This document shows positions 5,152 through 38,420 of a stretch of DNA of 64,000 bases, piece after piece. How positions within the stretch are numbered: position 1 is the stretch's first letter; each line of letters starts with the position of its first letter. Where the stretch lies: contig OZ320316.1 of the NCBI GenBank assembly GCA_976226885.1, positions 101,928,001-101,992,000 of the forward strand, written 5' to 3'. The position numbers were made by a program, and so were the translations under genes. The notes under the pieces are model-generated. The model did no database searches and was not told the origin of the DNA. It saw only the letters and a program-made list of their open reading frames with translations. The DNA is from Iphione sp. A-MEVVRFRX5 (Eukaryota).

Positions 5152-6218
5152 ACGGTCACGGAGGTCGGGTGGAGTTCGACAAGCAGGGCGACGGCCTGGG
5201 CCGCTACTACATTCTCAACTACCGGCGCAACCGCACCACGCGCCGCTTCGAGTACGTGCGCGTCGGGCGCTGGTCGTCGTCGGGGCTCACCATGTTCGAC
5301 GATCAACGCGTCGTGTGGACGGGCGGCACCTACGACGTGCCGGACAGTCGCTGTTCTCAGCCGTGCGGGCCGGACGAGATCAAGAAGGGCCAGCAGGGGG
5401 ACACCTGCTGCTGGATCTGCACCAAGTGCCGCCCGTACGAGTACGTCCGCGACGAGTTCACCTGCGAGGACTGCGGCGACGGTTACTGGCCGCATGCGCA
5501 CAAGCGCTCCTGCTACAAGCTTCCGGAGAAGTACATCCGCTGGAACAGCGTCTTCGCCATCGTGCCCATCTGCCTGAGCGTGCTGGGCATCCTCCTGACC
5601 TGTATAGTCATCCTGACCTTCCTGCGTCACTGGGACACCCCCATAGTGAAAGCCTCCGGCCGCGAACTTAGCTTCCTGCTGCTGGCCGGTTTCCTCGTGT
5701 GCTACTCCATGTCGTTCATCCTTATCATCAAGCCCTCGGCGCTCGTCTGCGGCGTGCAGCGCTTCGGGGTCGGCTTCGGCTTCAGCATGACGTACGCCTC
5801 GCTGCTCACCAAGACCAACCGCATCTCGCGCATCTTCGACAGCGCCAGCAAGTCGGCCAAGCGCCCGGCCTTCATCAGCCCCAAGTCGCAGCTGCTCATC
5901 AGCGCCATCTTGATCGGCTTCCAGGTGGTGTTCGCCTGCGTGTGGATGGTGCTCGAGCCGCCGGCCACCCGCCATTACTACCTGGGCGGCCAGCGTGACC
6001 AGGTGATCCTCAAGTGTCGCATCAAGGACATCTCCTTCTTGGTGTCGCTCATCTACAACATGCTGCTCATCGTCGTGTGCACGGTGTACGCTGTCAAGAC
6101 GAGGAAGATCCCCGAGAACTTCAACGAGTCCAAGTTCATCGGCTTTACCATGTACACCACCTGTATCATCTGGCTGGCCTTCGTGCCCATCTACTTCGGC
6201 ACGCTCAACTCCTTCGAG
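5152..6218 (+). CDS. mGluR: Metabotropic glutamate receptor (group II / DmGluRA-like), internal exon: end of Venus-flytrap domain, cysteine-rich domain, TM1-TM6
   Basis: Acceptor ...ccacccctcag|AC at 5151/5152 and donor TTCGAG|gtaagt at 6218/6219. Translation has FDKQGDGLGRY, a 9-Cys CRD (CSQPC...CCWICTKC...C..C...C), KASGRELS, LLTKTNRISRIF and KTRKIPENFNESKFIGFTMYTTCIIWLAFVPIYFG. Codons are strongly G/C-ending. Upstream exons are outside the window. Confidence 0.97.
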
Positions 6219-6560
6219 GTAAGTATCTTAACCTTGAATTGACCTTATCCCGGGGTCAAAGAGCTTCACTATGTTTGCTACTTGTATTGCCTGTCTCACC
6301 TTTGTGTTGATCTTAGACATGCTCAACTCCTTCGAGGTAAGAACCCTGACCTTGAGATGACCTTATCCTGGGTCAAGCAGCTTCACTAGGTTTGCTACTT
6401 GTAAATGCCTGTCTCCCCTTTGTGTTGATCTAAGACATGTTTAACTCCTTCGAGGTGGGGAACCTGACCTTGAGATGACCCTGTCCTGTTCACTTTAACA
6501 TTGCCTGTGTGACCTTTAGGTTGATCTCAGACTTGGCTAACTCTTTTCAGGTAAAGTTTG
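6203..6560 (+). repeat. 118-bp tandem repeat whose unit contains the mGluR exon end and 5' splice site (4 copies)
   Basis: aactccttcgag|gt with the GT at 6219, 6337 and 6455, plus a diverged aactcttttcag|gtaaag with the GT at 6551. Confidence 0.9.
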
Positions 6561-9500: not shown

Positions 9501-10669
9501 TGTGAAATAATATCATTCTTTCATACCAAAAGTTACCTTGGTAAGCCCTTATACGGAGCCCCACTGTAACATCAAGTTCACTCTTAATACCAGAAAGGTA
9601 GCATTTCTGTACACAAACCCACTCCCACTTCTATATTACAAATTAATTATGCCATCTTTATTATAACCCCAACACATCACAATTCACTATATATGATATT
9701 ATTTATTTACAAGAACAGACTCAAAGTTGTTTCTTCAATTCTTATACATAATTCGGCAGTCTTTACCCTAACCCCCCCTTTACTTAATCAACTGCTCCTA
9801 ACTGGGAAGTACAACTGTAGCATTTTTGTACAGGGAAACACTTAAATGTTATCCTAGTTCTGCTACATAACTTATTAGCTACGCTACCTAAAAGTAAGGT
9901 TTCTGTACAGGACATATCACAATTCTCTTTTAGTAAATGTTACTCATCATATCTGTATCATAGTTTTCCCATACTTAATTCACTCTTCCTGGCAAGCTTC
10001 AATTTGACATCGTCAGTCAAAATTTATGAGTTCCATCCAACTAGCTCTTTTTTAGTTCGTCCCCACCATATATGTACATGTATAGTGAGAATTTTGCTAC
10101 TCCCCGTCGATCAAATATTGACATTCGTAAAAGTTTATCTACTGCAGAGTTATTTCACATGAGCATTGTATATCTCCATCTCGCCAATCGTTGCAATATA
10201 CAGTAGCCCTCTATGCTGGTGCCCAAGACTTACGATCGATTCCTTGTAAGGATAAAGTTATATCAGAAAAACAAAACCAAAAAATGGTCAACAACCAAAT
10301 ACTCATCAATCGAGATCGTTACAGTGTCATATACATTGTATGGTGTGGCCAAACTGGGAAAAAAAGCTGAATCTTAAAGGGTTTTAGTCAAATAGGCAAG
10401 AAAAAGAAGGAAAAGAAAAGTGCAGGCAACGAGCTCCAGCCGCTGACAACCTAACCCATTCTCTATTTACCCTCCTCCAGCAGCTTTGGCTAACTAGGGC
10501 TGTGCCCGGTAACTTGCAGGTGACCCTAGCTATCCTCTGCGTCACCTGGGGCGATTGCCGGGCCTTATTGGCGAGAAGACCGGGGGGTGCGGGGGGGGGG
10601 GGTAGTAGTGTGAGAATCGATTGAAGCGACCTGGATGAGGTGGTGCCTAGGGGGGGGAGGAGCTGACCG

Positions 10670-11240
10670 CTAGGTGCGTTATAGACAGGACTAGATAGAG
10701 CAATAAAGGACAAGACCCTATGAGGACATCAGAGGGATGAGGGAGGGAACCATAAGGAGTCGTATTTAAGAGAGGGTTTTTAATGGAACTTTACTTTTAG
10801 ATATGTTATATACAGGACTAGATAGAGCAATAAAAGACAAGACCATGTGAGGACATCAGAGAAATATGGGAGTAAGCATTTGAAGTCGTATTTTAGAAAG
10901 GGTTTTTAATGGAACTTTACCATTATATCCACTTAAGACAGGACTAGATAGGACAATAAAGGACAAGAAGGTGTGAGGATGTCAGAGGGATATGGGATGT
11001 AAGCGTAAGGAGTGGTATTTTGGAAAGGTTTTTTAATGGAACTTTACATCTTAATAGATGCATTATAGACAGGACCAGATAAAGCAATTAAAGACAAGAC
11101 CATGTGAGGATATCAGAGGGATATAGGAGGTAACCATTAGGAGTAGTATCTTAGAGTGGGTTTTAATAGAACTTAACTGTTACATGTGTTATAAATAGGA
11201 CTAGATAGAGCAATAAAGGACCAGACCACAAGACAGATAT
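10670..11240. repeat. About 127-bp tandem repeat, about 4.3 copies (intronic)
   Basis: ggac(t/c)agata...caataaa(g/a)gacaagac at 10688, 10815, 10941, 11072 and 11198. Confidence 0.9.
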
Positions 11241-29240: not shown

Positions 29241-29478
29241 TGTTCGCCCCGAACGAAGAGACATGACAACTAGGTTACTTTTGAAGGTTTATTCTCGAAG
29301 AACAGAAGGTGAATGACGACAGGACTCCGCCCGGTTCTAATTTATACACATAACGTAACTCCGGGCGGAGCCCCTCACGATACCGGACATAACTCCGGTG
29401 ACACATCACTCCCTAGCGGAGTAACCCCGGGCGGAGCCCAACACTCCCTAGCGGAGTAACCCCGGGCGGAGCCCAACA
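29241..29478 (-). repeat. 3' LTR (238 bp)
   Basis: Direct repeat of 38183-38420 (231/238 identical). On the - strand: TATAAA (plus tttata 29341-29346), AATAAA, and a 35-bp tandem duplication at the U3 end. Confidence 0.97.
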
Positions 29479-29587: not shown

Positions 29588-32506
29588 CTACTGGTCCCCT
29601 GATGATCTCTCTACTGAGACCTTAAACTCTTCCTCCAGAGACAGGTCTAATTGGTCTGTCTCCGGTACGTTGGCAGTCAGTTCTGAGTGCACCAATGTCG
29701 GATGCACCCGGGGCTCCTTCCGCCCGTGCATTTGGAGCCACTCTGTCGGAGACTTTGCCCTGGATGGGTCTGGGGTGCGGAGCCGAAGCTGCACCCCCTG
29801 CCGGATCCGCACTAGGGTGTTGCTAGTCTGGGGAGTAACTGTTGCTATCCCGCGCGCAGAGAGTAAAGGCCACCCCTCAGGAGGAACGGAGAGGGGTGTA
29901 ACGACCCGAGCCTGGGCCCAACGCACAACCGGCCCCAGCACCTCGGCCACCTCCAATCTCAGCTGGCGACAAGCCACAGGCCTAGTGTTGGTCCGCCTGG
30001 CTACGTCCCCAGCGGACCCTGGTGCTGTCCCCGGGCGGGAGGGCCCGACCGAGGCCGGAGTGCTGGTAGCCAGTGGTGGAACTGTCTGGTCTCTACGCAT
30101 GAGTCCTGCTACTACCCCGGGGCGTCGTTCCACCAAGACAGAGTGGGTGGCACGTCCCAGGCGTCCCAGGAGTGCTGGGGAGAGGATCCCTCGGCTCGCT
30201 GAGGTAGCGGGCTGTACTCCCTCTCGCCGTCCCGGGAGTGCCGGGGGGAGGACCTCCTGGAGCCTTGGAGGAGGGGCCGGTTGCTCCCCCTCCTCCTCGC
30301 GTCATCCCGGGAGTGCCGGGGGGAGGACCTCCTGGTCCACTGGGGGACAGACTGGCCGCTCACTCTCCTCGTCGTGTCGTCCCGGGGGTGCTGGGGGGGG
30401 GGGACCTCCTGGTCCTTGGGAGGAGGGGCCGGTTGCTCCCCCTCCTCCTCGCGTCGTCCCGGGAGTGCCGGGGGGAGGACCTCCTGGTCCACTGGGGGAG
30501 GGACTGGCTGCTCACTCTCCTCGTCGCGTCGTCCCGGGGGTGCCGGGGGGAGGACCTCCTGGTCCTTGGGAGGAGGGGCCGGTTGCTCCCCCTCCTCCTC
30601 GCATCGTCCCGGGAGTGCTGGGGGGAGGACCTCCTGGTCCGCCGGGGGAGAGACTTGCTGCTCCCCCCCCTCCTTGCGTTGTCCCGGGGGTACCGGGGGG
30701 AGGACCTCCTGGTCCATCGGAAGTCGGGTGGTCGCTCTCCCTCCTCCTCGTGTCGTCCCGGGGGTGCCGGGGGGAGGACCTCCTGGTCTGTTAGGGGAAG
30801 GGTTGGCGGTCCTCCCTTCCCCTCCTGCTGGCTAGGGAGGGTGCCGGACGCTGTCGCCCTTACTGGAGTACTGGAGCTGGTGACGAGTGAGGGCGGTACC
30901 TCACCCTGCTGGCCGCAAGACTCTGGCGAAACTCCGCCTTCACCGGAGTCCGCTGATTCACTCCGCCCCGCCTGTAGATCACCGGAGTCCGGTCGCCGCT
31001 CCGTCTCAAAGGAGGAGGGACCCCAGCCGAGCTCCGCCAAGGTAACCGCCGTCTCCTCCTCAGTGGGCAAGTCTTCTTCTGACTCCTCGGCGATAGCTCC
31101 CCCCGTGAGCTCCAGCCGAGCATAACGCACCCGGCCACACGTGCTTCCCGGGCTCTGACTCAGCTCGGTGGCCAGGGTGCTCGAGGCGACTGTCTCATCC
31201 TGTCCCTGACTTGCCTCCTCATCAGAGTCCGGATCGGACCCTATGATCACGACGTGTGGGGCTGCTCCGACCGCTCGACGTTTTCCCAACCTTCTCCCAG
31301 GCGCTCATCCAATTCCCTCGCTGCTGCACTGTACGAGGAGGACCCCGCGGAGCCGGGAGTAGACTGAGGAGTGAACCCTTGGCCCTTGATGCCAGATGTG
31401 ACCAGGGCCCTCTGCAGTGGAGACATGGTGGATGACGCGGCGCCCTTCTTCGCCGGGGAGGGCAGGCTAGCTGGGGTAATCGGACTGGTCTGCGGCTGGT
31501 ACTTCCTCTTTTCTCGAGCCTCCTCCCTCATGGCGGCCAGATTCCAGCCACGTCCGGGAGTGATCGGGTCTTCTTCTTCTGGGGGGGACCTCGGCCTGGC
31601 CCGCCCTCTGGCCAGCACTCGAACTCGCGCTGCTCCGGGGGTGGAAGGAAGGGCGGGTGCAGGGGACCTCGCGGAGGTAGAGGGAGACCACCCCTGCGAT
31701 CGGATCCCGCGCCCGACTCCTCGCAGAGGTACGCCCGGAGACATATCCAGCCCGTAGAGTTGTGCCTCGATGGAAGCCGTGGACACCGGTGTGACAGGGG
31801 TCCTCGACCCCCCAGGCGTGGACACCGTGGAAGAAACTTGGGCGCCCCTCCCCGTCTGAGGCCGAAGTTGGCGGGGCTCCACCACTTCTTTGCACTCTCC
31901 CTCACTGGTGGAAGAGACTGAGACTGAGACTTGGGCACCCCTCCCCGTCCGGGGCCGGAGTTGGCGGGGCTCCACCACCTCCTCTTGTTCCTCTTCTCCC
32001 CCTTCTTCCGCCTGTTCCTCTTCTCCCTCTGCCTCTTCCCCTTCATCTTTGTCCTCGTCCTCCCAGTCCTTGTCCAACGAGACCTCAGCAGCAGCTGACG
32101 CAGCCGGGGGAGGGCGCCGGCCTAGCTTCGGGCGGGACGGCGGAGCTTCCCCCCGACACATGGCCAGTTCCTTAGCCCTCTCGTAGGCCTCGGCCTTCAT
32201 CTGGCGCTGGTACTCCACTTCCTTCTCGGGTGGCACGGGGATGATCTCTTTCCTGGTGAGGTCCATATACACCACATCCACGAACTGGCCCAGTTCCAGA
32301 GGGCGCTCGGCCTCCTTGTCATGCTGTTTCTCAAGGTGCCGCCGGAAATCGTCCCAGCGGCCAAAATCTGCCCCCCGGCAGCGGGGAACCGGGCAGATCC
32401 GGACAAATCCTCTCCTCGCATGCCTCTTCTTATGGCGTTTAAAGTTGGAGGGGTGGTCCGTGGTGTAACCACAGGTCTGACAGAGACGGACCTTGTTCCT
32501 TGGCAT
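29588..32506 (-). pseudogene. Accessory ORF3 of the Gypsy element: about 970-aa C2H2 zinc-finger protein (3 frameshifts, 1 in-frame stop)
   Basis: First ATG at 32506 (MPRNKVRL). CQTC-x12-H-x3-H and CPVPRC-x13-H-x4-H at 32482-32321. Frames join across indels near 31290, 30740 and 30400 and a TGA at 30304-30302. Ends at stop 29588-29590, about 100 nt before the PPT. Confidence 0.85.
30235..30790 (-). repeat. 75-bp coding tandem repeat x8 (25-aa DQEVLPPA(P/L)PGRxxEEGEQPxPPP) inside ORF3
   Basis: gacctcc at 30251, 30326, 30403, 30478, 30553, 30628, 30703 and 30777. Confidence 0.95.
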
Positions 32507-32754
32507 TTCGTCCTCCACCCGGGCAACGAGGCAAACTCCGGCAGCTTGAGTGAACTCCGGTGGCGGAGTGGTAGACTCCGGTGACCCAAGTGAGTTCTGA
32601 AAAGAACTCCCAACGTACTCCGGTGGCAGAGCGATGCGGCCTCGGCCGTCGGGCGGTGGACAATCTGGCACGTACTCCGGTGGGGCCCAGCAAAAACTCC
32701 GAAGTCGGGGCAGAGCTCGGCGGTGAACAGTACGAATGGCCTCCTGCAGGGCCA

Positions 32755-32930
32755 CCTCCTTATATCTGCGCGCCCAGGACTCCGCCGGTCTCTGATTGGC
32801 CCAGCATTCCCGCGCTTCGCACTGATTGGTCGATGTCGAGCGGAGTGCGGTAATTCGCCCGCCCGGAGTCTGTTGTAGGACTCCGCTGACTTCGTGGGGA
32901 CTCCGGGCGGAGCTTAGGGCGAACTCCGGC
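32755..32930 (-). promoter_or_regulatory. Putative internal Pol II promoter upstream of ORF3
   Basis: In - strand order: GC-rich GCGGAG sites (32912-32840), CCAAT (32829-32825), CCAAT (32799-32795), TATAAG (32764-32759). No ATG until 32506. Confidence 0.65.
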
Positions 32931-35900
32931 CGCTACACGCTTCTTCCAAGTCGGGTGCCGCCTCTCTCCTATCTTCCTCCACAGCACCTGCACCAAGTGG
33001 TCAGTGGCACGACGCCCATACTGGCGCTGTAACCTCCTCCGCAGGCCCAGCAATTTCTTCATGGCCCAGTAGAACCTGAGGGCTGGGCCGACCCACTCTC
33101 TCCCGGTGACCAATGGCTGACAAACAGAGAGGGGTTGGAGGGCGCGGCAGGTCCGGTCACTCAGGATGCGAAGCTCGGCAGCGACCAGATCTACCCACCC
33201 CTGAGGAATCCGGACGACCGGCGGGGGGCGCGGTACAGAGGGTGGAGGTCTGGAGCTCTGTCCCTGGACCCGTCTGTACCAGCGAGGGGGGGGCACCGGA
33301 GGTTGAACCCGACCTCCTTCCAGGCCCCGGTGGTCCGGCTCATGCCGTAGCATCCTGACTCGTCCCAGCACCTCTTCTTGCTCTCCCACCATCGGGTCCA
33401 CGGCTCGCTTTAAGAGGTCTGCGTTTACTACCCGGCGGCGCTGTCCCCGTTTAATCCGGTAGACCACGGCGCTTAGTCTCGATTGGACCTCCCACGGACC
33501 TTGCCAACGGCTTTGCAGTTTGGGGGACCGCCCCTTCTTCTTGATAGGACTGTAGAGCCACACCCGGTCTCAGACATCGAACTCCTGGGGCCTGACCTTC
33601 TTATCGTACCAATCCTTCTGACGTTCAGCGGCTCTCTGTAAGTGCCACCACACGGCCCGGTGGGCCTCCACGAAGCGACGGTGGACCTCCTCCACGTACC
33701 CGGCTACCGATCGCCGCTCTTCCTTCGGGGACCCCACCATCAACTCGATGGGCAGAGTAGTCTCTCGTTGCAGGGTAAGCCAGTTTGGGGAGAACCCTGT
33801 CGTACGATGTGGTGTGGCTCGGTAGGCGGCAAGGACGTACGGAACCTTCTCATCCCAGTCAGACTGGTCTACACGCACCACTTTGGCCAGCATGCTGAGA
33901 AGAGTCCTATCAAACCTCTCCACTACCCCGTCGCTCTGAGGGTGGTTGGGGGTAGTTCGCGACCGTTGAATCCCGAGAAGTTGTAGCAGCTCCTGCACGA
34001 CCGCCGCCTCGAAATTCCTTCCTTGATCCGAATGGAGGACCCGCGGAGGCCCGAACTGGCAGATAACTTCCCGTAGTAAAATCTCAGCGGTGGCTGTCGC
34101 AGTTACCTCCTTCGCCGGGAAGGCTTCGGTCCACTTGGTGAAATGGTCGGCCACCACCAGGATGTACTTGTTCCCCCTGACCGTCTCGGGGAACGGGCCG
34201 CACACGTCCATGGCGACGAACTCCCAGGGGGCGGGGGCTACTCACAGCTGCAAGGGGGCCCGATGCCGCCGGGAAGGGTCCTGCCTCTGCTGGCAAGGGA
34301 GGCATGCCCGCCCCCACTGCTGGACGTCACGTGCCAGCCCAGGCCAGCAATATTTGCGTCGTAGAGCCCCTTCGGTCTTTTCGGGGCCAAGGTGCCCCCC
34401 CATGACTCCGGCGTGGACCTCCTGCCAAACGTGGAAGCGACGTCCCTCGGGTACATAGGCTTGATACCAGGTGGTTCCGTCTTCGCCTTCCCACCGGCGG
34501 CAAAGGAGACCTCCCCTCATCTCCAGCCGGGGCGCTTCTCCCTTCAGCCAACGCTCCTCTCGTCCATCTCCGCTGCTCGGCGGGGGAATTGCCTCCCCCA
34601 ACTCGAGAGCCCGCAGCACAGGCCCTGCCCTGTCGTCTTACTTCTGGGCATAACTCAGAGTGTCCTCTTCGACTGGCTCCACGGACACCGCCGCTACCTG
34701 CCCCATCTCGTCCAGCTCCGTCGGCTCCCTCCCGCACTGTGGGCATATCTGCCTCGAGAGGCCGTCCGCGTTACCATGCTTCTTACCCGGTCGGTGGATG
34801 ATCTCCAGGTCGTAGCAGTGTACCTCTTCTAGCCAGCGTGCGAACTGGCCTTCCGGGGCTCTGAAGTGGCACAACCAGCACAGTGAACTATGGTCTGTAC
34901 AGACCACTAGCTTCAGGCCCCCCACATACGAGCGGAACTTGCGGAGACCAAACACGACCGCCAATAATTCCTTCCGGGTCACGCAGTAGTTCCGCTCCGG
35001 GCATGTGAGACTCCGGCTTGCATAGGTCAACACTCGCTCCCTTCCGTCTTGCTCCTGTGAGAGTACCGCTCCTATGCCGGCAGCGGAAGCGTCCGTGTCC
35101 AATGTCATCGGTCCTTCCGGTCGGGGATAGGCCAACACCGGAGAGGAGACCAGCCTTGCCTTCAAAGTGACAAAAGCCTGCTGACAGTCAGGGGTCCAAC
35201 GGTACTCCTTGCCTTTCTCCAGCAGTTCGTGCAGGGGAGCGGCCACCGCGGCGAACCCCTCCACAAAGCTGCGGTAGTAAGAGCAGAGGCCGACGAAGCT
35301 CCGAAGTTCGGTAATGCAACGGGGGACCAGCCAGGCTTGCACAGATGCGATCTTCTCCGGATCCGGCTCCACTCCATCGGCCGACACTTGATGTCCCAGG
35401 TACGCCACCCTCTTCTGAAACAGCTGGCACTTCCGGGGTTTCACCTTAAGGCCTGCCATCCGAAGCCTGCTGAACACCTCGTCCAGGCGCCGGGTCATCT
35501 CCTCCACGGTTCTGCCGATCACGATCACGTCATCCAAGTAGACCAGGCAGGACTGGCCAACCAGTCCTCACAGCACGGCTTCCATCAGACGCTCAAAGGT
35601 AGAAGGCGCGTTACACAACCCGAAGGGCATGACGCGGAATTGGTAGAGTCCCCTGGGCATGCACACGGCCGTCTTTCCCTTATCCTCGGGCCGCACTCCC
35701 ACCTGCCAGTATCCGCTGGCCGGATAGATTGCCGAGAAATAACGTCCCCCTTGCAGAGCGTCCAACGTCTGGTCGATGCGGGGTAGGGGATAGGCGTCCT
35801 TCTTGGTCACCCCGTTCAGCGCCCGGTAGTCTATGCAGAACCTCCAACTCTGATCCTTCTTGCGCACCAATACCACTGGCGACGCCCAGGGACTCGTTGA

Positions 35901-37061
35901 GGGTTCCAGCACTCCTTGCCACAACATCTTGTCCACTTCTTGCTGGACCAGAGCCTTCTTGGCCGGCGGTAGGCGTCGGACCCTCTGCCAAATCGGTCCG
36001 TGACCCTGCGTGTCTATCCGATGTTGGACTACCTCTGTCCGACCCAGCGCTCCTCCCTCCTCCTGGAAGCAGTCCGCGTTCTTCCGTAGCATCCGCTCTA
36101 CCTCTTCCCTCTGCGACTCATCTAGTTCCTTGGGCAATTGCTCCAACAGACCTTGCAGCGCGGACCCGGGCCCGGGCTCTCTACCGGCTCGGGCACTCTC
36201 CTCCTGCTCCAGTCTGTCCGCCCCGTCGACCAGCTGGACTCTCGCGACGACTGTCCCTTGCCACAAGCAATGTCCCCGAGCACTCACGTTGGCAATCTCT
36301 ACCGCTCCCTCTCGGCTACCAGCTGGGCACACCGTGCGTGCCAGCACCATACCTGAGCGGCCCTCCCACTCGGGGGAGGCCTCCACCAACACTGGTTGAT
36401 CCTCATCATCGAGCCCTTCCCAGCGCACGCGGGCCTGTACCGCGCTCCGCCCACTGAGCTGATAATCCTCAACCAGTACAGCCCGACATCCTTCCGTGCT
36501 GTCGTCCTTGGGGACACGCACCCGAAGTGCGGTCCCCTCCGTGTCCACCTGCGCTCTCCAGCAGCATAGCATGTCCAACCCCAGTATCGCGGGGCAATCA
36601 ATTCGGGCCACCCAGGCCTTGACTTCGAGCTCCACTCCAGCGAACTGTACCCGTACTCGGGTCCGGCCCCTCACCCGGAGAGGCTGCCCATCCGCACACA
36701 GGATCCGCCCCGCGGCAGGCTCCAGTTCAGCCAGAGCCAGGGCGTCGGCTACCTCCTCTGAAAGCAATGTGAGGGAGGCTCCCGTATCCACCAACCAGGG
36801 CACCCGGAGCCCGGCCACTTCGCTGGGGAGCACAATGTTCATCCCTCGGTTTTGCTCCCCTTCTAGAACCACTTCCTCCCCCGCCTCCAGGTGCAGCTTC
36901 CGCAGGTGCTCGTCCAGCGTGTCCTCACCATCATCACGCCTCTCCTCGGCCGTCACCCCTACTGTGGGGGGATGGCCGCTCCCCCGTTTCCCAACGGCTG
37001 TTCCTTGGGGGGATGGGGACAATTCCACTTGAAGTGTCCCAACTCGCCACAATTGAAGCAC
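32760..37061 (-). pseudogene. pol: Gypsy pol (protease, RT, RNase H, integrase); single frame with 4 premature stops
   Basis: LVDTGAS (PR), WRFCIDYRALN / MPFGLCNAPSTF / YLDD (RT), LDTDAS (RH), H-x6-H...C-x2-C, MDVCGP / HSDQGRNFE / VERF (IN DDE), WQGPW (GPY/F). In-frame stops at 35570-35568, 34640-34638, 34244-34242 and 33572-33570. Confidence 0.96.
36940..36992 (-). promoter_or_regulatory. -1 programmed ribosomal frameshift signal (gag-pol)
   Basis: G GGA AAC heptamer in the gag frame (plus 36986-36992). A 7-nt spacer precedes a CGGCC...GGCCG stem with an inner CCCC/GGGG. pol is in the -1 frame. Confidence 0.8.
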
Positions 37062-38134
37062 TTTTTACTCGCCGGTCGCCGGTTTTCCTTGTTAGCTTCG
37101 GTCTGCCCTGCTAGTAGCTGTTGCAGCAGCTGCTCTAAGCGTTCCCACCCGCCAGACAGAACCTCTTTCTTCGGGGCCGTAGTAGAGGGAGCGGGCGCTT
37201 GCCCCAGGGCCTCCAACTTGTGTACTTTCTTGGGACTCCCCCTATCCATCTTATTCTGGTAGTACGATTCCGCGACTTGCGAGGCCGAAAGCGCTTCACG
37301 GAAGGTGGATATCCGGGCTTGGGTCACCCACTTCCGGACCTTCTCGTTAGAGAGGGCTCCCACGTAGTACTCCCGGCACATCCGATCTTTCCACTTCCCC
37401 TTCGCCTCCGGGTAAGCCAGCTGGATCAGACGCTTGATCTCGTCGGCCAGGTCCGCCAGTGCTTCGGACTTCTCCTGTCGCCGCCCCTTTAACTGCTGGA
37501 TGTAAGCATCCGTCTGATGCTTGGACTGGAAGCGTTCGGTGAGGGCATTTACCAACTGTTGGTACGCCCCTGCTTGTTCCACATCCACGCCAGTGCTTCG
37601 CAGAACCGCTCGTGCCGACTTCCGAAGTGTGATTCCTAGCTGGAGGGCCTTGTCAGCCTCCGTACAGTGATTGGCGAGTGCCACTAACTCGAAGTGCTGA
37701 AGGAAATGTCGGAGCGGAGTGCTACCATCGTAGGTGTCTGGTTTCACCTGGCCCTTCCTGCCGCCTTCAGGCCATAGCGCGGAGCGAAGTCCTTCCACAA
37801 ATCCGGTCCACAAGGGGGGCGGAGTGGCCGTCTCCGCCTCTCCCTCCTCAGCACCTCCTTCGAGGTGTAGGTCATTACCTCCTACGCCTTCGTCGACCGG
37901 GGCGTGGGGAGCAGAGCCTTGGGCCGGTGTTGGCCCCTCTTCCTCCTCTTCTGGCTCGACTCCCCTTCCTGGTGGGGCATCTTCACTCTCTGGGGAGCAA
38001 CTGTCCTCTTCTCCTGACAGTTCATGAGCCCCGGCAGACTCCGGGCGGAGCTGGGCGGAGTCCGGCCAGACCACGGCGAACTCCGCCCCTTCACCGGATT
38101 CCCCTGGTTCAGCTACCTCCGCCCGGATCTTCAT
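36959..38134 (-). CDS. gag: Gypsy gag (capsid-like domain and CCHC knuckle), frame open
   Basis: VKPDTYDGSTPLRHFLQHFELVA capsid motif and CFNCGELGHFKWNC knuckle. ATG at 38134 after the PBS; the frame is open back to an ATG at 38206 inside the LTR. Confidence 0.92.
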   Translation of the reverse strand: MKIRAEVAEPGESGEGAEFAVVWPDSAQLRPESAGAHELSGEEDSCSPESEDAPPGRGVEPEEEEEGPTPAQGSAPHAPVDEGVGGNDLHLEGGAEEGEAETATPPPLWTGFVEGLRSALWPEGGRKGQVKPDTYDGSTPLRHFLQHFELVALANHCTEADKALQLGITLRKSARAVLRSTGVDVEQAGAYQQLVNALTERFQSKHQTDAYIQQLKGRRQEKSEALADLADEIKRLIQLAYPEAKGKWKDRMCREYYVGALSNEKVRKWVTQARISTFREALSASQVAESYYQNKMDRGSPKKVHKLEALGQAPAPSTTAPKKEVLSGGWERLEQLLQQLLAGQTEANKENRRPASKKCFNCGELGHFKWNCPHPPKEQPLGNGGAAIPPQ

Positions 38135-38162
38135 CGACTCCGCCGAGCTCCCTGGAGGGAAG

Positions 38163-38180
38163 ATCCCACTGCTGCCACCA
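38163..38180 (-). promoter_or_regulatory. Primer-binding site, tRNA-Leu type
   Basis: The - strand reads TGGTGGCAGCAGTGGGAT, 2 nt after the 5' LTR. It is complementary to a ...ATCCCAC(C/T)GCTGCCACCA tRNA-Leu 3' end (from recall, not searched). Confidence 0.8.
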
Positions 38181-38182
38181 AT

Positions 38183-38420
38183 TGTTCGCCCCGAACGAAG
38201 AGACATGACAACTAGGTTACTTTTGAAGGTTTATTCTCGAAGAATATAAGGTGAATGACGACAGGACTCCGCCCGGTTCTAATTTATACACATAACGTAA
38301 CTCCGGACGGAGCCCCCCACGATACCGGACATAACTCCGGCAACACAACACTCCCTAGCGGAGTAACCCCGGGCGGAGCCCAACACTCCCTAGCGGAGTA
38401 ACCCCGGGCGGAGCCCAACA
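38183..38420 (-). repeat. 5' LTR (238 bp)
   Basis: Direct repeat of 29241-29478, followed by PBS and gag on the - strand. Confidence 0.97.

Follow-up and report, generated by a model that had tools for sequence, protein, structure and literature searches.

Can a Ty3/Gypsy retrotransposon carry, inside its own coding region, a promoter for a DNA-binding protein of its own? This question was raised by a locus of Iphione sp. A-MEVVRFRX5 (assembly GCA_976226885.1, contig OZ320316.1, positions 101,928,001 to 101,992,000, forward strand). The whole analysed stretch of 64,000 nt is called the window, and all coordinates refer to it. LTR retrotransposons are usually viewed as transcribed via host factors, with self-encoded DNA-binding activators regarded as a mark of complex retroviruses. 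The first-pass annotation of the window had proposed an internal promoter dedicated to a free-standing ORF3, in analogy to foamy viruses.

Structure and classification of the element

An LTR element of 9.2 kb, lying on the - strand at 38420-29241 (Table 1), contained the promoter-like block. The two 238-bp LTRs were about 97% identical, differing at 7/240 positions, and the target duplication was ATAT (4 bp). A primer binding site (PBS), which we take to be tRNA-Leu-like, and a purine tract (PPT) were also found. The internal region was thus bounded by LTRs, PBS and PPT. This is the arrangement given for Metaviridae (Ty3/Gypsy) in PMC7879559. Pfam identified a gag with capsid and nucleocapsid and a pol with the order PR-RT-RH-INT, each in a single frame in natural copies. 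No env with surface and transmembrane domains was found after the integrase, where the only Pfam matches were C2H2 fingers, accompanied by acidic and proline-rich sequence. With env absent, domains of Gypsy type and the predicted promoter inside the pol frame, the features of Spumaretrovirinae were not found; the element belongs to Metaviridae and a foamy virus is excluded. The genes gag and pol, which differ in frame, overlapped at 36959-37064 (-), an arrangement suggestive of ribosomal frameshifting.

The genome searched comprised 1.18 Gb, and all families compared come from this one genome; the letters A, C, G and K are labels coined in this analysis. The family C copies (L101-L130) were 99-100% identical across the 400-nt query, which points to recent amplification of that lineage. 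Elsewhere in the window, a host class C G-protein-coupled receptor exon was present at 5292-6242 (+; Pfam 7tm_3, NCD3G), as were host minisatellite-like arrays with units of 55-130 nt (2391-2665, 6170-6488, 10648-11228 and 17885-18481).

Table 1. Features of the element in window coordinates
Feature	Position	Strand	Remarks
5' LTR (TG...CA, 238 bp)	38183..38420	-	TATAAA at 38288, GGCGGAG, TCATTC initiator-like site
Primer binding site	38163..38180	-	then GCGGAG cluster over gag start
gag: capsid-like domain, CCHC knuckle	36959..38206	-	Pfam zf-CCHC, weak Ty3_capsid
pol: PR-RT-RH-INT-GPY/SH3	33400..37064	-	four in-frame stops in window copy
Pol extension past integrase, conserved block	32946..33209	-	constrained as protein
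Upstream array, six [G/C]CGGAG sites	32840..32929	-	conserved reverse-oriented site ~16-20 nt before CCAAT1
CCAAT box 1	32825..32829	-	28/30 close copies
CCAAT box 2, 30 bp from box 1	32795..32799	-	30/30 close copies
GCGGAG between CCAAT2 and TATA	32780..32785	-	7/8 aligned representatives
TATAAG box	32759..32764	-	30/30 close copies
Initiator-like TTCR	32733..32736	-	118/125 copies; start near 32733 predicted
ATG-free leader, six more [G/C]CGGAG sites	32507..32732	-	also pol-frame coding in family
Conserved ATG and two C2H2 fingers	32321..32506	-	codons 9-29 and 38-62, predicted GCG-GAG reading
Zinc-finger ORF in window copy, 419 aa	31247..32506	-	truncated by 1-nt deletion near 31256
Further motif cluster inside zinc-finger ORF	30930..30990	.	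also in families C and K
75-nt (25-codon) tandem repeat within ORF	30147..30852	-	
Conserved C-terminal alpha/beta domain	29588..30100	-	ends ~110 nt before 3' LTR
3' LTR	29241..29478	-	AATAAA at 29293; purine tract precedes

Conservation of the internal promoter block

The two CCAAT boxes, the TATAAG and the ATG with A at -3 were all present where the first-pass annotation had placed them, and its ATG-free leader was borne out, with zero ATG between TATA and 32506 and a single one upstream of TATA (32807, - strand). A loose version of this architecture was matched by 0/400 dinucleotide shuffles of the element. Across the genome, the strict pattern CCAAT-30 bp-CCAAT-35 bp-TATAA gave 569 matches compared with 4 for the reversed control, and analogous patterns in which the CCAAT boxes were closer together or farther apart stayed at control level (11 vs 11; 2 vs 5). 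Because such a pattern search is circular, copies of families C, G and K were sampled via finger-coding DNA alone. The architecture was found upstream of the finger ATG in 30/30, 26/30 and 30/30 of them, respectively, so the CCAAT/TATA spacing is conserved among family copies, although the finger region of family C was only 55% and that of family K 43% identical to the window's. The close copies listed in Table 1 are 93-97% identical, and their motif retention therefore says little; the full architecture was kept in just 3/13 old, decayed relatives.

Aligning eight natural copies codon by codon revealed the level at which this conservation acts. Between distant families, identity at fourfold-degenerate sites was 0.79 (n=63) from just before CCAAT1 to TATA and 0.28 (n=569) in the integrase, where such sites are saturated; the 7 family pairs behind these values are not independent. 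The difference indicates that constraint acts on the DNA. Across four lineages, the same codon was kept in 11/14 invariant degenerate columns of the block and in 17/128 of the integrase. The kept letters were those of a reverse GCGGAG-type site, the two CCAAT boxes, GCGGAG and TATAA, and the intervening bases varied. An account of the block by protein conservation only was ruled out by fourfold-site identity and codon retention.

Further features were tallied in 125 distinct copies; 10 more copies had no findable finger or ATG. TTCR was found 28-31 nt past the T of TATA in 118 of the 125, which places the predicted start near 32733 and agrees with the earlier estimate of 32735. A purine occupied position -3 of the ATG in 124/125 copies. 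The leader was free of ATG in 31/38 copies of family A, 30/30 of C, 15/25 of G and 23/30 of K; pol has 8.5-13 ATG per kb. These results suggested that the block is very likely a real cis element. Of the internal promoter claimed earlier, the conserved motifs upstream of the finger ATG stood, and from their identity and spacing we infer, with good though lesser confidence, an active promoter.

A 79-nt intron had also been suggested in the leader. Its gtacgt at 32675 and the ttcttttcag ending at 32597 are present in the window copy, but conservation fails, as the donor context was found in 24/125 copies, nearly all from the window's subfamily. A pyrimidine-rich acceptor was found in every copy of A (38/38) and G (25/25) and in none of C (0/30) or K (0/30). 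Some families may splice the leader, but splicing cannot be the conserved route.

The zinc-finger ORF as the end of pol

The free-standing ORF3 had to be given up, because the zinc-finger ORF was in frame with pol across the family. It looks separate and short in the window owing to two deletions in this copy, one of 5 nt near 32876, which shifts the frame, and one of 1 nt near 31256. In 20/20 copies picked for long frames, the C-terminal motif of the integrase and the fingers were in one open frame of up to 2633 aa, and the longest of these frames extended almost to the 3' LTR. Without such selection, the continuous frame was kept in 21/38 copies of A, 28/29 of C, 15/22 of G and 22/27 of K, and the exceptions were mostly scattered indels. 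Leader length ranged from 216 to 472 nt, and the pol frame was nevertheless kept in 120/125 copies and at all 9 recurrent lengths, that is, lengths seen in two or more copies.

Protein-level conservation of the leader was low (0.21). Upstream of the block, the Pol extension showed amino-acid identities of 0.46-0.65 between families with fourfold-site identities of 0.26-0.31; it had zero Pfam matches and was absent from 120 outside integrase homologs. A second protein-constrained block was located at the extreme end of the ORF. Given the frame-keeping leader lengths and the conserved flanking blocks, selection keeps both the predicted promoter and the continuous frame. This frame may be maintained for a functional Pol fusion, or its sole effect may be to save the genomic RNA from a 3-kb untranslated tail.

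In four open natural copies the zinc-finger ORF comprised 799-1122 aa, with acidic and proline-rich stretches; an acidic stretch followed the fingers in three of the four. The fingers showed the classical C2H2 spacing (C-x2-4-C...H-x3-5-H) with a recognition helix and were joined by a linker not of the TGEKP type. The Pfam zf-C2H2 match was weak in the window ORF and above the cut-off for the family K copy alone, and sequence matches of the finger region were to CTCF and BCL11A. Its structural model placed helices at 19-29 and 51-62 with moderate confidence (pTM 0.54), and Foldseek returned no match for it at E<=0.001. No outside relatives of the finger region were found at E<=10, and searches of representatives and Atlas gave generic C2H2 proteins only. 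Fourfold sites in the finger region (32321-32506) were 0.55 identical between families (n=92), over the background of 0.28. The C-terminal domain was modelled with pLDDT 76-93 across residues 61-170 and had no Pfam, Atlas or homolog match. Its fold was left unassigned, since only generic alpha/beta matches were obtained in the fold search (best Z 7.7, rmsd 3.9, 104 aligned).

Predicted target of the fingers

In all four families tallied, RRDD[FL]RR was the commonest helix of finger 2. Finger 1 carried H[PA]SNFKR, KPGNFDR or RPGNLRR, in which N at +3 and R at +6 were kept; its position -1 was His or Lys, not Arg, in families A, G and C. Published tables assign RSDDLVR to GCG and RSDNLVR to GAG (PMC7317221, PMC5260015) and set the C-terminal finger against the 5' triplet (PMC7317221). 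Read with these tables, the helices predict the target GCGGAG. Clustering of CGGAG had been noticed before the helices were read, so this is a match and not a blind prediction.

GCGGAG was the top hexamer across the LTR and the internal promoter, with 55 occurrences in 2,698 nt and 8 in 13,164 nt of pol; this pooled count was made without the LTRs of 3/7 representatives, hence with none for family G. The LTR check was redone with fixed windows. Just after the LTR, 5 sites were counted in 300 nt (0.4 expected), and the mapped copies showed site clusters within the LTR, past the PBS, around the internal promoter and, in one place, within the ORF. In five representatives, the order GCG-GAG occurred 102 times and the reversed triplet order 13 times. 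Neighbouring sites were most often arranged head to head (19 cases), as might be expected of a target for a dimer. CCGGAG, which the recognition code does not predict, was read at 57 sites. Of the 102 GCGGAG sites, 48 had the form GGGCGGAG and 54 were without the GG prefix; GGGCGGG occurred just 5 times in the same regions. We take GGGCGGAG to resemble an Sp/KLF GC box.

The window's 5' LTR contained five GCGGAG sites and no CCAAT. The LTR core TATA..GGCGGAG..GTCATT was found in 10/11 copies; in the 260 nt before the PBS, a sense CCAAT was found in 1/11 and, in the upstream windows, a reverse CCAAT in 2/11. From the helices and the distribution of the hexamer, it is probable that the fingers bind GCGGAG.

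Proposed circuit and alternative explanations

These features can be joined in a self-regulating circuit. Host NF-Y on the twin CCAAT boxes would provide basal activity of the internal promoter, which the LTR, largely without CCAAT, would lack. NF-Y can reach CCAAT sites in closed chromatin, according to the available text of PMC3730095, and this would fit such a basal role. An RNA of ~3.45 kb would run from ~32733 to the AATAAA at 29293, and from ATG 32506 it would give a protein of ~800-1100 aa. Finger 2 would read GCG and finger 1 GAG, and the bound protein, via its acidic and proline-rich body, would activate both promoters. The finger-coding sequence is likely also translated as the C-terminus of Pol, and a Pol-fused regulator could ride in particles to the new DNA copy, which is the weakest step. 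Taken as a whole, an internal promoter that yields a C2H2 protein which binds GCGGAG at both promoters and activates the element is the explanation we somewhat favour. More tentatively, a sequence-specific transcription factor and a two-step switch might have arisen in a Gypsy lineage without any tie to complex retroviruses: a host-driven promoter in pol would yield the C2H2 protein, this would bind the GCGGAG arrays and turn on the LTR, and its Pol-fused form would travel in the particle and prime each new insertion.

The same promoter and binding could also belong to a repressor for copy-number control or to an anti-silencing factor of the VANC kind, which we consider unlikely. In its favour, the sites lie also over the leader and gag start, downstream of both predicted starts, GCGGAG contains a CpG, and the C-terminal domain is without assigned function. 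VANC proteins, as described in the text available of PMC5735166, act on targets that recur within the elements encoding them. Against it, no local protection from CpG decay was found at the promoter (p=0.91), an acidic stretch follows the fingers in three of four open copies, and the contrast between a CCAAT-rich internal promoter and a CCAAT-poor LTR fits a two-step start.

A real promoter whose arrays serve host Sp/KLF-type factors, with fingers that act mainly in Pol, for example by holding the new DNA ends or steering integration, appears improbable. In its favour, a CCAAT box, a GC box and TATA make a textbook host promoter, nearly half of the sites are GGGCGGAG, and the frame from pol to the fingers is strongly kept. 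Against it, classical GGGCGGG is rare, 54 of the 102 sites are without the GG prefix, and the finger helices fit the conserved hexamer, with its triplets in the order predicted. Another cis signal for RNA structure, packaging or splicing, with the finger protein obtained from Pol processing or LTR-spliced RNA only, is very improbable. In its favour are the frame shared by pol and fingers and the pyrimidine-rich AG in all A and G leaders, an acceptor that C and K lack. Against it, invariance is confined to the letters of two CCAAT boxes, GCGGAG, TATAA and TTCR, spaced as in a promoter, and under such a reading the ATG-free leader and the conserved initiation context would be superfluous.

Protein and predicted target can be read from one element, and the hexamer predicted by two fingers marks both promoters across families with fingers down to 43% identical. 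A domain of 60 residues and a pair of short reporters would suffice to put the circuit to a direct test. The locus is also a case of a promoter-like block and leader held inside a reading frame. As the genome holds hundreds of copies, dead copies, solo LTRs and GC-rich host promoters could all come under the action of the protein in trans.

Comparison with known systems

A literature search outside Repbase reports and most subscription journals showed no Gypsy element in which a C2H2 regulator is paired with sites of its own, and a term search for such a system gave zero matches in the available text of PMC13524379. An internal promoter alone is not new, because Tor3b env and Grande gene23 precede it. 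Relative to the search, what did not appear elsewhere is the combination of a self-encoded C2H2 protein, predicted matching sites at both promoters and a frame shared with Pol.

Among Gypsy elements, the two closest outside integrases (57-58%) stop right after the GPY region. An in-frame tail with Met and fingers was found in 13/97 homologs with locatable GPY, all in a separate clade, and the layout may thus have arisen more than once. In this clade (P0087, P0089, P0096, P0097, P0099, P0103, P0110-P0112, P0116, P0127, P0130 and P0136), Pol likewise runs past the integrase into a tail with a conserved Met, a pair of CCHC-type and C2H2 fingers, an acidic region and, at the C-terminus, a block that is conserved. 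This may be a case of convergence. The clade differs from the present element in its separate integrase branch (support 0.90), other fingers and an unrelated C-terminal domain; a relationship between the two C-terminal domains was rejected (probability 0.2%).

Partial parallels were found in other systems, whose descriptions here follow the text available of each source. VANC of Arabidopsis VANDAL is also an element-encoded, sequence-specific protein with short targets repeated within the element (PMC5735166); it belongs to a DNA transposon and acts by demethylation, whereas the indirect CpG-decay test gave no sign of local methylation protection here. Maize Grande gene23, an accessory gene in the 3' internal region of a Gypsy element, has a promoter of its own (PMC7264820), but unlike the present ORF it is antisense and separate from pol. 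Zinc, DNA binding and transactivation are unmentioned in the available part of that review of plant additional ORFs. Penv of Tor3b and Tor4b from Oikopleura dioica is an internal promoter in an animal LTR element, and for Tor3b, transcription begins within pol and gives a capped, unspliced RNA (PMC4402516). What Penv drives is a separate gene for an env glycoprotein and not one for a DNA-binding protein, and the text available reports no feedback on the LTR.

Foamy viruses also come close in layout. They have two promoters, the internal one within a coding gene upstream of the regulator, and regulator targets at both (PMC7390438 and PMC7828637, in the text available). In the present element, sequence and conservation gave the same layout of a predicted internal promoter upstream of a putative regulator gene. 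Binding of this regulator at both promoters is a prediction from the recognition code and from motif clustering. The differences, as far as these sources describe foamy viruses, are that their internal promoter lies in env and here in pol, in an element without env; that their Pol comes from a separate spliced RNA, and here a C2H2 protein that shares its frame with Pol is the putative regulator; and that the Tas targets of LTR and internal promoter share little sequence, compared with one common hexamer here. Basal activity and activation were measured for foamy viruses and are deduced here from sequence, in which the CCAAT contrast between internal promoter and LTR is suggestive. Of the analogy drawn in the first-pass annotation, ORF3 as a separate gene fell away and transactivation stayed a prediction, but the predicted internal promoter proved conserved and its product has predicted sites at both promoters. 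By this comparison, the element's mode of action likely resembles that of the internal promoter and Tas in foamy viruses.
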